DNA from: Escherichia coli
GTDB taxonomy: Bacteria; Pseudomonadota; Gammaproteobacteria; Enterobacterales; Enterobacteriaceae
Reading direction: 5' to 3' (one strand)
NCBI RefSeq assembly: GCF_029227855.1
Contig: NZ_CP074356.1
Length of the DNA: 64,000 nucleotides
Below the pieces are notes generated by a model. That model was not told the DNA's origin. It made no database searches and saw only the letters and a list, made by a program, of their open reading frames with translations. Shown in pieces: positions 9,400 to 40,631 of the stretch. The number at the start of each line of letters is the position of its first letter. Position 1 is the first letter of the stretch. The position numbers were made by a program, and so were the translations under genes.

Positions 9400-10092
9400 T
9401 CACGTCACCCGTTTTGCCCGACTTGCCTTCGTCCATTCTGGATTTGCACAGCGCGGACATAATTGTTTTTCCCCCGCGTTCATATGAATGATTTCACTGC
9501 AACGAATGCAGGCATAGTCCGCCGACTCGGGTACCACTTTGTAACGCTGAGTACAGTCACTGGGTAAAATAAGTAAGCCCGGTTTCACCTTGTCATCTTC
9601 AAAGAAATAGACACTGATTTGCCCGTTGGTTTCGAGAATCGCCAGACGTACTTGCCCCAACTGCTCTACACCGCGCAATCGTAGCTCCATAAAGAACTCA
9701 AATTCCGTCATGTTGGAGTTATTGAGTTTCGACCAGGCCAGCTCGCCATCTTCAATAATGACAACCGGCTTACCTTCCAGAAGATCTTCCAGTTTTTCAC
9801 TGTGTGCCATCAACCACATTACCAGGCGGTATAACAACGCCAGAGTAATAAAGACGATAAGTACCGGGACCATCGGCACATCATCATAAAACGCCACATC
9901 TCCCGCCGCTGATCCCAGCGTCAGAATGATTAACACTTCAAAAAGCGACATCTGCCGCACACCGCGTCTTCCGGTCATTTTGAGGAACAAAAAAACCAGT
10001 ACAAAGGTATAAAGACTACGTAGTGCCACTTCGCCAAGGAAATCAAAAGGCACTTTATCAAATGCCATACGGTGGAGATCAAACGCCTTCAT
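9400..10092 (-). CDS. ycaP: DUF421-family inner-membrane protein YcaP
   Basis: 230-aa ORF with N-terminal transmembrane segments; position between serC and ycaO matches K-12. Confidence 0.85.
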   Translation of the reverse strand: MKAFDLHRMAFDKVPFDFLGEVALRSLYTFVLVFLFLKMTGRRGVRQMSLFEVLIILTLGSAAGDVAFYDDVPMVPVLIVFITLALLYRLVMWLMAHSEKLEDLLEGKPVVIIEDGELAWSKLNNSNMTEFEFFMELRLRGVEQLGQVRLAILETNGQISVYFFEDDKVKPGLLILPSDCTQRYKVVPESADYACIRCSEIIHMNAGEKQLCPRCANPEWTKASRAKRVT

Positions 10093-10221
10093 TTTTATGC
10101 TCTTATCGTGGTTTATCCACTAAAAGCATAGTCAACAGTTCATCGGCATGGCGGCGGTGATAGCGCCTTTGAGATAAAACCCGTATTATTGCGCGCTTTC
10201 CGTACGACTAAAGTGATTTTC

Positions 10222-11982
10222 ATGACGCAAACATTTATCCCCGGCAAAGATGCCGCACTGGAAGATTCCATCGCTCGCTTCCAGCAAAAACTTTCAGACC
10301 TCGGCTTTCAGATTGAAGAGGCCTCCTGGCTGAATCCGGTGCCTAACGTCTGGTCTGTACATATTCGCGACAAAGAGTGCGCACTGTGTTTTACCAACGG
10401 TAAAGGCGCAACCAAAAAAGCGGCGCTGGCTTCTGCACTCGGTGAATATTTCGAGCGTCTCTCAACCAACTACTTTTTTGCTGATTTCTGGCTGGGCGAA
10501 ACCATCGCCAACGGTCCGTTCGTGCATTATCCCAACGAAAAATGGTTCCCACTGAGCGAAAATGACGATGTGCCAGAAGGGCTGCTCGATGACCGTCTGC
10601 GCGCATTTTACGATCCGGAGAATGAATTGACCGGCAGTATGCTGATTGACCTGCAATCCGGTAACGAAGATCGTGGTATTTGCGGTCTGCCGTTTACGCG
10701 CCAGTCCGACAATCAGACCGTTTATATTCCGATGAATATCATTGGTAACCTGTACGTTTCTAACGGTATGTCCGCTGGCAATACCCGCAACGAAGCACGC
10801 GTTCAGGGGTTGTCCGAAGTTTTCGAACGCTACGTGAAAAACCGCATTATTGCTGAAAGCATCAGCTTGCCGGAAATCCCGGCAGACGTGCTGGCGCGTT
10901 ACCCAGCGGTGGTTGAAGCCATCGAAACGCTGGAAGCAGAAGGTTTCCCAATCTTTGCTTATGATGGTTCGCTTGGCGGCCAGTATCCGGTGATTTGCGT
11001 GGTACTGTTTAATCCTGCTAACGGCACCTGCTTTGCCTCTTTCGGTGCGCATCCTGATTTTGGCGTAGCACTGGAACGTACCGTGACCGAGCTGCTGCAA
11101 GGTCGTGGCCTGAAAGATTTGGATGTGTTTACTCCGCCAACCTTCGATGATGAAGAAGTTGCTGAACATACCAACCTCGAAACGCACTTTATCGATTCCA
11201 GCGGCTTAATCTCCTGGGACCTGTTCAAGCAGGATGCCGATTATCCGTTTGTGGACTGGAATTTCTCCGGCACCACGGAGGAAGAGTTTGCTACGCTGAT
11301 GGCTATCTTCAACAAAGAAGATAAAGAAGTTTATATTGCCGATTACGAGCATCTGGGCGTTTATGCTTGCCGAATTATCGTGCCTGGCATGTCCGATATT
11401 TATCCGGCTGAAGATCTGTGGCTGGCGAATAACAGTATGGGCAGCCATTTACGTGAAACGATTCTTTCGTTACCAGGCAGCGAGTGGGAAAAAGAAGATT
11501 ACCTGAACCTCATCGAGCAACTGGATGAAGAAGGTTTTGATGACTTTACCCGCGTGCGTGAGCTGTTGGGTCTGGCGACCGGGTCGGATAACGGTTGGTA
11601 CACCCTGCGTATCGGTGAATTAAAAGCCATGCTGGCGCTGGCTGGTGGCGATCTGGAACAGGCTCTGGTCTGGACCGAATGGACGATGGAGTTTAACTCA
11701 TCAGTATTTAGTCCGGAACGCGCCAACTATTATCGCTGCCTGCAAACGTTGTTATTACTGGCGCAGGAAGAAGATCGCCAGCCGCTGCAATATTTGAATG
11801 CGTTTGTTCGCATGTACGGCGCAGATGCCGTGGAAGCCGCCAGTGCGGCAATGAGCGGCGAAGCGGCGTTTTATGGCTTGCAACCAGTAGATAGCGATCT
11901 GCACGCGTTTGCAGCACATCAGTCGTTGTTGAAGGCCTACGAAAAGCTGCAGCGCGCCAAAGCAGCATTCTGGGCAAAATAA
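10222..11982 (+). CDS. ycaO: YcaO-domain protein (founding member of the YcaO ATP-dependent amide-activating superfamily)
   Basis: 597-aa ORF trimmed to MTQTFIPGKD (586 aa); location upstream of focA-pflB. Confidence 0.93.
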   Translation: MTQTFIPGKDAALEDSIARFQQKLSDLGFQIEEASWLNPVPNVWSVHIRDKECALCFTNGKGATKKAALASALGEYFERLSTNYFFADFWLGETIANGPFVHYPNEKWFPLSENDDVPEGLLDDRLRAFYDPENELTGSMLIDLQSGNEDRGICGLPFTRQSDNQTVYIPMNIIGNLYVSNGMSAGNTRNEARVQGLSEVFERYVKNRIIAESISLPEIPADVLARYPAVVEAIETLEAEGFPIFAYDGSLGGQYPVICVVLFNPANGTCFASFGAHPDFGVALERTVTELLQGRGLKDLDVFTPPTFDDEEVAEHTNLETHFIDSSGLISWDLFKQDADYPFVDWNFSGTTEEEFATLMAIFNKEDKEVYIADYEHLGVYACRIIVPGMSDIYPAEDLWLANNSMGSHLRETILSLPGSEWEKEDYLNLIEQLDEEGFDDFTRVRELLGLATGSDNGWYTLRIGELKAMLALAGGDLEQALVWTEWTMEFNSSVFSPERANYYRCLQTLLLLAQEEDRQPLQYLNAFVRMYGADAVEAASAAMSGEAAFYGLQPVDSDLHAFAAHQSLLKAYEKLQRAKAAFWAK

Positions 11983-24426: not shown

Positions 24427-24615
24427 AATGGCTCACTCAAGCTTGCTCACGATTGATTCCAGTAACAAACCGTATTGTGTAATTATTTCTATAGCAGGTC
24501 GCTATATAGGCTTGTATACATCGAATAATTTGAAAATCAAAGAGATAGGTAGATTTTCACTCGAAAGTAGTATTACGTGTAAGTGAGGAGTAATTATTGT
24601 TCGGTATCAAAGGGA

Positions 24616-24648
24616 GACAAAAAAAGCGCCCGCAGGCGCTTTTTAGAT
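24616..24648 (-). terminator. Rho-independent terminator after serS
   Basis: Hairpin agcgcccgcaggcgct with flanking A/T runs about 20 bp past the serS stop. Confidence 0.6.
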
Positions 24649-24664
24649 TCAGAAAAATTGGGTA

Positions 24665-39238: not shown

Positions 39239-39276
39239 TTGTTTTACCGCCTGATGGGCGAAGAGAAAGAACGAGT

Positions 39277-39307
39277 AAAAGGTCGGTTTAACCGGCCTTT
39301 TTATTTT
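39277..39307 (+). terminator. Rho-independent terminator after infA
   Basis: Hairpin aaaggtcggtt/aaccggccttt followed by a T-run. Confidence 0.6.
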
Positions 39308-39491
39308 GTGATATGTATGAAGTACTTTGGAAGTATAAATCCATAACTTGTCTCGATGTAGATATACTGCACAACTTGTTTACAGTATGAGCAAACAATA
39401 ATTATCATTAAAATTCTTCTTGACCGTTTTACTCCAACTCCCTATAGTAGCGCCCCGTTGCCACCCATGAGGTTTGGCAGCAAAACAATTT

Positions 39492-39579
39492 GGTGAGGTG
39501 TCCGAGTGGCTGAAGGAGCACGCCTGGAAAGTGTGTATACGGCAACGTATCGGGGGTTCGAATCCCCCCCTCACCGCCA
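39492..39579 (+). tRNA. serW: tRNA-Ser (anticodon GGA)
   Basis: 88-nt sequence GGTGAGGTGTCCGAGTGGCTGAAGGAGC...GGTTCGAATCCCCCCCTCACCGCCA with long variable arm and GGA anticodon; infA-adjacent copy, hence serW rather than serX. Confidence 0.95.
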
Positions 39580-39590
39580 TATTCAAAGAA

Positions 39591-39620
39591 GAGCTCGTAC
39601 GAAAGTACGAGTTTTTTTTC
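39591..39620 (+). terminator. Rho-independent terminator after serW
   Basis: Hairpin gagctcgtac/gtacgagttc followed by eight T residues. Confidence 0.7.
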
Positions 39621-39629
39621 GCATTTTAT

Positions 39630-39708
39630 CTGCCTGTACGGCAGTGAACGGTATAAAAATCGAGTTTTTCTTTCGGTTGGCTTTCTAAGCTGCCTGTACG
39701 GCAGTGAA
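39630..39708 (+). repeat. Two direct copies of a 19-20-bp hairpin-forming motif (tgcctgtacggcagtgaac) spaced about 59 bp apart
   Basis: Exact duplicate seen at 39631-39649 and 39690-39708 downstream of the serW terminator; each copy is itself a small palindrome (ctgcc-tgtac-ggcag). Confidence 0.7.
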
Positions 39709-39858
39709 CTCAAATACTACACGTTTAGTCCGTTATTAATAAAGCAAAACCATCTCATTTTCCTGCTACCACCCTTTTTTATCCTTACCTTCCCGCAGCA
39801 CTAATTATCAACAACTTACCATCATCATCAAAAAAAGGGTCTGAACCTCCTCCACCCC

Positions 39859-40565
39859 ATAAATAAATATCCTCCGGCATAGCCGGAGGTTTTTCAAATG
39901 CGCCTATAAGGCTCTCTTACCAGCCGCGCCCTAACAGGCGCACACGATCTGACATTTGCATCCAACTTCGTTACTTACGGCCCGTAAACGGGCTGCCCGG
40001 ATAGGGAATCGATAACTGCTCTCCCATTTTATCCTCTTCAAGCTGGTGCTTTATGTAATCCTGTATCTTCGCCGTGTTCTTACCCACTGTATCGACGTAG
40101 TACCCTCTGCACCAGAACTCCCTGTTCCTGTATTTGAATTTCAAATCACCAAACTGCTCGTAAAGCATCAGACTGCTTTTCCCTTTCAGATATCCCATAA
40201 ACCCGGATACGCTCATTTTGGGCGGGATCTCCACAAGCATATGGATATGATCTGCACAGCATTCAGCTTCCAGAATCCGTACGCTTTTCCACTCACACAG
40301 CTTTCTCAAAATACTGCCTATTGCTCTACGCTTCTCTCTGTAGAACACCTGTCTTCGGTATTTTGGCGCAAAAACTATGTGATATTTACAGTTCCATCGG
40401 GTGTGCGCTAAGCTCTTTTCGTTCCCCATTGGGACCCCCTTTTGATTTCTTGTTTGACACTTGCAGTTGCCAGACCGCAAAGTGTTTTAACAAATCAAAA
40501 GGGGTTTTAATAACTGGCTCAAAGCTGAAAGCTTTCCGGAACCCCCAGCCTAGCTGGGGGTTTTC
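39859..40565 (-). mobile_element. IS200-type insertion sequence (IS200/IS605 family, single tnpA); ends approximate
   Basis: Y1/HUH transposase ORF plus IS200-type architecture: RBS-sequestering stem-loop just upstream of the tnpA start (40440-40500) and a perfect 8-bp-stem hairpin cccccagc-cta-gctggggg at 40538-40556. The serW-clpA gap here is about 709 bp longer than I recall for K-12. Ends estimated from typical IS200 geometry, plus or minus 20 bp. Confidence 0.6.
39971..40429 (-). CDS. tnpA: IS200 transposase TnpA (Y1 HUH transposase)
   Basis: 152-aa protein from MGNEKSLAHTRWNCKYHIVFAPKYRRQVFY with HUH-type motif (HIHMLV) and catalytic Tyr region, characteristic of IS200 TnpA. Confidence 0.9.
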   Translation of the reverse strand: MGNEKSLAHTRWNCKYHIVFAPKYRRQVFYREKRRAIGSILRKLCEWKSVRILEAECCADHIHMLVEIPPKMSVSGFMGYLKGKSSLMLYEQFGDLKFKYRNREFWCRGYYVDTVGKNTAKIQDYIKHQLEEDKMGEQLSIPYPGSPFTGRK

Positions 40566-40568
40566 TGT

Positions 40569-40607
40569 GCACAAAAAAGTCCGTAACCTCTTTCGAGATT
40601 ACGGACT
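40569..40607 (-). terminator. Rho-independent terminator after clpA
   Basis: On the minus strand, hairpin gtccgtaatctcgaaagaggttacggac followed by ttttttgtg, 25 bp past the clpA stop. Confidence 0.65.
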
Positions 40608-40631
40608 TCACCAACCTACCTGACAATCAGA

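Follow-up and report, generated by a model that had tools for sequence, protein, structure and literature searches.

An orphan CRISPR4.1-2 array of Escherichia coli with spacers directed against cas genes was reportedly described by Diez-Villasenor et al. in 2010. In the literature that uses this name the array is assigned to the CRISPR-III locus (PMC3903273; PMC4489801), and those passages of the cited literature that deal with the array state that its spacers match type I-F cas genes "almost invariably". Complete type I-F CRISPR-Cas systems of the kind present in LF82, ED1a and PMV-1 comprise six cas genes and two arrays of 7–15 or more spacers. The PAM of E. coli CRISPR-4 is GG on the leader-proximal side (CC on the spacer-sense strand considered here), and a GGC motif has been shown experimentally to support interference (PMC3506596). 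Furthermore, mini-CRISPR arrays with one spacer, a full and a truncated repeat and no cognate cas genes, which rely on Cas proteins in trans, have been described from viruses and mobile elements, where they are aimed at competitors (PMC8616872). Direct repeats beside a tRNA gene are also found at the att sites of genomic islands; in this case the repeats copy the 3' end of the tRNA and bracket kilobases of island together with an integrase.

Here we analyzed a pair of direct repeats beside the tRNA gene serW in a stretch of 64,000 nucleotides from E. coli (the window), which is 100% identical to strain JNEC-KY178 and in which the gene order is trxB-cydDC-aat-infA-serW-[array]-IS200C-clpA-clpS. 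It is close to certain that the pair is an orphan type I-F CRISPR array of E. coli, namely CRISPR4.1-2 at the clpA-infA CRISPR-III locus. It shares with this class the clpA-infA locus, the 28-nt repeat, the leader and the layout with one spacer; as in the class, this spacer targets an I-F cas gene and the PAM is the correct one. There is no essential difference. The array has thus already been described as a class and is a member of it that genome annotation omits. Specific to the strain are only the csy3-directed spacer allele, carried instead of the cas1f-directed allele of K-12, and a rare IS200C insertion upstream of the leader. With the complete systems of the LF82/ED1a/PMV-1 type the array has an identical repeat, the CRISPR4.1 leader, the chromosomal site and the PAM in common; unlike them the window contains neither cas genes nor CRISPR4.2, and has another serW-infA interval and another T-stem allele of serW. 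The viral and mobile mini-arrays resemble it in organization, but the array in the window is chromosomal and vertically inherited and targets the cas genes of its own machinery.

Identity of the repeat pair

The repeats are most easily seen as a 19-mer, TGCCTGTACGGCAGTGAAC, which is present in two exact copies in direct orientation in the 64-kb window, at 39631-39649 and 39691-39709. An earlier note on this DNA had recognized both copies, placing the second one nucleotide too early at 39690-39708. In 100 dinucleotide-preserving shuffles no match to the 19-mer was found, even with up to 3 mismatches allowed. The exact repeat is 20 nt long (CTGCCTGTACGGCAGTGAAC, 39630-39649 and 39690-39709), with a distance of 60 from start to start. 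Each copy folds into the proposed ctgcc/ggcag mini-hairpin, with a stem of 5 bp, a loop of 5 nt and a folding energy of -8.6 kcal/mol. The full unit comprises 28 nt on the minus strand, GTTCACTGCCGTACAGGCAGCTTAGAAA at 39709-39682 and GTTCACTGCCGTACAGGCAGATAAAATG at 39649-39622, and the two units are identical at 23 of 28 positions. The 32 nt between them form a separate unit, and the sum of 28 and 32 gives the 60-nt period of type I-F CRISPR arrays. The 28-nt unit on the minus strand, the 32-nt spacer as a unit and the I-F period had all been overlooked in the earlier note.

We scanned the region with the Rfam model RF01317 (CRISPR-DR4, gathering score 35). The leader-proximal repeat (39682-39709, minus strand) scored 50.1 bits over model positions 1-28, a perfect match to the consensus. 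The terminal, leader-distal repeat (39622-39649, minus strand) reached 29.7 bits, which is under the gathering score: its first 20 nt including the hairpin are intact, while its last 8 nt are degenerate. Such a degenerate end is usual for the terminal repeat of a CRISPR array. The same end, ...GGCAGATAAAATG, is also found in K-12, GmM066, GN25, OkiPb01681 and Ecol_867. In both copies the hairpin takes the Rfam consensus structure at repeat positions 6-20, the recognition element of Cas6f. The array is read on the minus strand, from the clpA side towards serW. In the window the 60-nt period consists of one interval only, corresponding to one spacer; it is also seen in an array of GN25 with 4 repeats and in the arrays of cas+ strains.

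No cognate I-F cas genes were detected in the window, either in the RefSeq annotation or by tblastn with I-F Cas proteins, and the array is therefore an orphan and not a complete CRISPR-Cas system. With Csy3 as tblastn query the sole match in the window was the spacer itself. Among 5426 complete E. coli genomes 241 contain csy3. The RefSeq annotation holds no feature at the array, so that the earlier statement that no annotated gene explains the motif is correct for the annotation, but not for the literature (PMC3903273, PMC4489801, PMC8616872).

Two features of annotation in this region may be mentioned here. The GN25 array (4 repeats, 3 spacers; repeats at 1228-1408 of the extracted locus) is overlapped by a PGAP "hypothetical protein", WP_012602745.1 (1105-1503), which is probably not a real CDS but a prediction that runs through the CRISPR array. 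The mechanical ORFs at 39429-39713 (minus strand) and 39506-39688 (plus strand) of the window are of the same kind.

Leader, serW and flanking sequences

On the serW side the order of elements agrees with what had been noted: the repeat follows directly after serW and its terminator. serW encodes tRNA-Ser(GGA) at 39492-39579 on the plus strand (ARAGORN, Rfam tRNA; identical to K-12 serW) and lies outside the array. Its terminator hairpin was found by a terminator scan at 39586-39619 (plus strand), and the terminal repeat ends 2 nt from it. On the minus strand, too, the scan rated this hairpin as terminator-like (39611-39594), and on this basis it probably bounds the transcript of the array as well.

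This position next to a tRNA gene had led to the proposal that the repeats are att-site scars, i.e. traces of an island or phage that once integrated at serW and was excised again, leaving direct repeats behind. Besides the adjoining tRNA gene, a mobile element, IS200C, is indeed located at a distance of about 150 bp. However, the 3' end of the tRNA is not duplicated: its 25-mer occurs once in the window, and the repeat sequence is unrelated to the tRNA. The repeats lie 60 bp apart with the csy3-derived 32-mer alone between them; they neither copy a tRNA end nor bracket an island with its integrase, and IS200C is inserted elsewhere (39864-40571) without relation to the repeat. Island-free K-12 contains the same two repeats, again 60 bp apart, and both are present in every other strain examined, i.e. 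they are not absent from empty sites. Since the repeat sequence furthermore equals the I-F CRISPR consensus, we give the att scar practically no chance of being correct.

Alternatively the hairpins could act in a plus-strand RNA by terminating, stabilizing or processing the serW transcript, or could represent a generic REP-like repeat. Their location just past the serW terminator and the ability of the palindromic stem to form on either strand are in line with such a role, but the terminator that precedes them is strong and carries an 8-T run, and in cas+ strains cas6f, and not the repeats, comes after the same serW and terminator. The motif is moreover unique in the window and is missing next to serX, an identical tRNA gene. 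We therefore regard an action on the serW transcript, or a REP-like nature, as very unlikely. The suggestion of transcript-processing hairpins is right insofar as these are CRISPR repeat hairpins and as such Cas6f sites of a pre-crRNA; the transcript concerned is, however, the minus-strand one running toward serW and not that of serW, and no Cas6f is encoded. The earlier note had named a motif present identically at serX and spread genome-wide as a generic repeat as an argument against a scar. With up to 3 mismatches allowed the motif is absent from the serX locus of K-12 and is unique to the serW locus, so that the scar is rejected on other grounds than this one; a generic motif flanking tRNA-Ser(GGA) genes was rejected on the same observation at serX.

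The A/T-rich sequence between the clpA side and the first repeat (39710-39863, minus strand) is a leader of the CRISPR4.1 type. Between the clpA terminator and the first repeat the window aligns colinearly with K-12 and with the cas-F+ strains 503025 and PMV-1, which indicates that the orphan array has kept the CRISPR4.1 leader and reads from the clpA side to serW. A consensus scan placed a putative sigma-70-like promoter, TTGATG-16-GATAAT, at 39831-39804 within the leader. In K-12 the leader, the two repeats and the junction with the serW terminator are as in the window, with a different spacer between the repeats.

Upstream of the leader the window carries IS200C at 39864-40571 (minus strand), identified from the annotation, an Rfam STnc490 match and the empty site in K-12. 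The element of 708 bp contains tnpA (39971-40429) and the STnc490/IS200 5' RNA (40439-40562; Rfam STnc490, 144.6 bits). Its insertion point separates the clpA terminator (about 40575-40608) from the CRISPR leader, 154 bp upstream of the first repeat, and the element is oriented like clpA and the array. A terminator-like hairpin at its 3' end (39889-39871) faces the leader, and the insertion could alter the activity of the leader in this lineage. The configuration is rare, being found in 6 of 5426 complete genomes, counted as those covering at least 80% of a 1.2-kb query that includes IS200C.

In cas-F+ strains the same chromosomal site has the order clpA-leader-CRISPR4.1-cas1f-cas3f-csy1-csy2-csy3-cas6f-serW-leader-CRISPR4.2-infA. 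All orphan arrays examined share the same junction between the terminal repeat and serW. The sequence ATAAAATGCG at this junction showed just a weak "ATGCG" resemblance to the cas6f-serW interval of cas+ strains.

We also compared serW itself between the window (39492-39579) and two cas-F+ loci (9818-9905 and 9814-9901). The serW genes of cas-less strains (window, K-12) and of cas-F+ strains differ by a compensatory base-pair swap in the T-stem, G61C with C77G. From this sequence difference the cas-serW-CRISPR4.2 segment as a whole is suggested to be a distinct haplotype. The serW-infA interval of cas-less strains (39239-39491 in the window) is unrelated to the leader and CRISPR4.2 of the cas+ locus (9902-10744), and in cas+ strains serW sits between CRISPR4.1 and CRISPR4.2. 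Taken together, these two observations rule out an origin by simple recombination between CRISPR4.1 and CRISPR4.2 repeats, the name CRISPR4.1-2 notwithstanding.

Small RNA elements were also seen in this part of the genome. In GmM066 serW and the array are separated by about 135 nt that are annotated as RtT sRNA (1024-1158 of the extracted locus). This element is also found in FDAARGOS_1077 and is absent from the window. The Rfam enterobacterial sRNA STnc130 at 24517-24651 of the window (plus strand, 140.1 bits, above the gathering score) is unrelated to the array.

Targets of the spacer

The single spacer (39650-39681, minus strand; crRNA sense GCCAACCGAAAGAAAAACTCGATTTTTATACC) has 32 nt and is a copied piece of csy3 (cas7f), one of the genes that encode the I-F effector complex. 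In a blastn search of complete E. coli genomes the 32-mer gave about 379 identical copies in unannotated DNA as well as csy3 matches in cas-F+ strains. The identical copies are the same orphan array in other strains. The csy3 matches cover 30 of 32 positions in both allele groups, the 503025 type and the PMV-1 type. In 503025 the protospacer is mismatched at spacer positions 26 and 29 and in PMV-1 at positions 2 and 23, all four differences being synonymous and at the third codon position. Directly upstream of the protospacer both csy3 alleles have 5'-CC, and the full motif is GGC.

The two allele groups differ in where the mismatches fall. In I-F systems spacer position 2 lies in the seed. 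The position-2 mismatch is found in the commoner group, the PMV-1/ST95-like csy3 of about 200 genomes, and against this allele direct interference may therefore be weak, so that only priming may remain. Against csy3 of the 503025 type the mismatches are PAM-distal only.

In order to search more widely for the source of the spacer we carried out a wobble-degenerate, PAM-anchored scan of 100,044 species-representative genomes. Six csy3 sites were found, the best of which matched at 31 of 32 positions (Escherichia whittamii and Escherichia sp. E1V33). An exact csy3 match was neither among the matches listed from the 5426 E. coli genomes nor in the 100,044 species representatives. By blastn against 50,697 phage and 72,556 plasmid records we found no credible phage or plasmid target, the partial matches being at chance level. 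An ordinary immunity spacer against phages or plasmids was rejected, the sole full match being an E. coli chromosome filed as a plasmid. This record from the plasmid collection, NZ_CP134663.1, has 4.9 Mb, is evidently chromosomal, and contains the orphan-array spacer of the window.

We extracted the arrays of six strains and found six different spacers with the same repeats and flanks. When these six spacers, including that of K-12, were compared with two I-F operons, all of them matched in cas1f, cas3f or csy3 with 0–3 mismatches, and the CC PAM was present in each of the 12 spacer/operon pairs. The matches of the five spacers other than that of the window fell in cas1f or cas3f. No site with 8 or fewer mismatches in the I-F operons was obtained for 200 shuffled spacers. 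In the arrays of two cas+ strains none of 43 spacers matched the cas operon, a further difference between the complete systems and the orphan arrays. The K-12 spacer, directed against cas1f, is found in about 2,300 genomes; the K-12 allele accounts for ~43% of complete genomes and the csy3-directed allele for ~7%.

These data also bear on the possibility that the array is an inert fossil, which records past self-targeting that either brought about the loss of the I-F cas genes or went along with it, is without function today and is kept by drift. Such a reading would agree with the lack of cas genes at hand to use the array, with the degenerate terminal repeat, which in K-12 and OkiPb01681 also has a stem mutation, and with the lack of a perfect spacer target in current genomes. 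On the other hand, conservation between distant lineages extends to the first repeat, to the second repeat's hairpin and to the leader, and the spacer varies by lineage yet is always directed against cas genes with a correct PAM. This combination argues for turnover under continued encounters rather than decay. In addition, native orphan arrays have been found to interfere in experiments, according to the summary in PMC8616872, which cites Almendros 2016. We consider an inert fossil unlikely, though clearly less so than a scar or hairpins acting on the serW transcript. It is also not mutually exclusive with an active role of the array, as it concerns its origin rather than its present effect.

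The shared junction, the different anti-cas spacers and the fact that no spacer can be added without Cas1 and Cas2-3 together suggest that the array may have been rewritten repeatedly. Possibly this took place during transient invasions of I-F cas operons, with primed acquisition, loss of the invader and loss of older spacers; the synonymous differences in csy3 could then be escape variants selected by the spacer and not the sign of an unsampled source allele. We put this scenario forward only tentatively and regard it as rather doubtful.

A proposed barrier to type I-F cas genes

The explanation that we favor with high confidence is that the orphan I-F CRISPR4.1-2 mini-array with its csy3 spacer would act as a heritable barrier against re-acquisition of the I-F system. 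This analysis itself shows that the array is of type I-F, how it is oriented, that the window lacks cas genes, and which target (csy3) and PAM the spacer has; transcription, processing and interference are taken from the literature. For orphan arrays constitutive expression, interference with plasmids carrying I-F cas genes and priming of spacer acquisition were found by Almendros et al. (2016, Nat Microbiol 1:16081), as summarized in PMC8616872.

In the proposed mechanism the mini-array would be transcribed from its own leader and would be inert by itself, the cell having neither Cas6f nor Csy proteins. Upon entry of a functional I-F cas operon, the Cas6f made from it would process the transcript by cleavage at both repeat hairpins. 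Because the last 8 nt of the first repeat and the first 20 nt of the second are retained, the spacer is still excisable, and by the established I-F processing rule this single spacer could yield one canonical 60-nt crRNA, in which the spacer (32 nt) is preceded by the 8-nt handle CUUAGAAA and followed by the 20-nt hairpin (GUUCACUGCCGUACAGGCAG). This crRNA would direct the Csy complex and Cas2-3 encoded by the operon to the protospacer next to CC in the newly arrived csy3. Destruction of the cas-bearing DNA would follow, and primed acquisition of spacers against it would be set off. The result would be a heritable block on re-acquiring the I-F system.

With this assignment a stretch of unannotated intergenic DNA is explained, which RefSeq/PGAP leaves unmarked, and the false lead of an integration scar at serW is removed. 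An array that works against its own system would be one reason why most E. coli are without type I-F CRISPR-Cas, an idea which, as far as the summarized literature conveys it, has been published since 2016.
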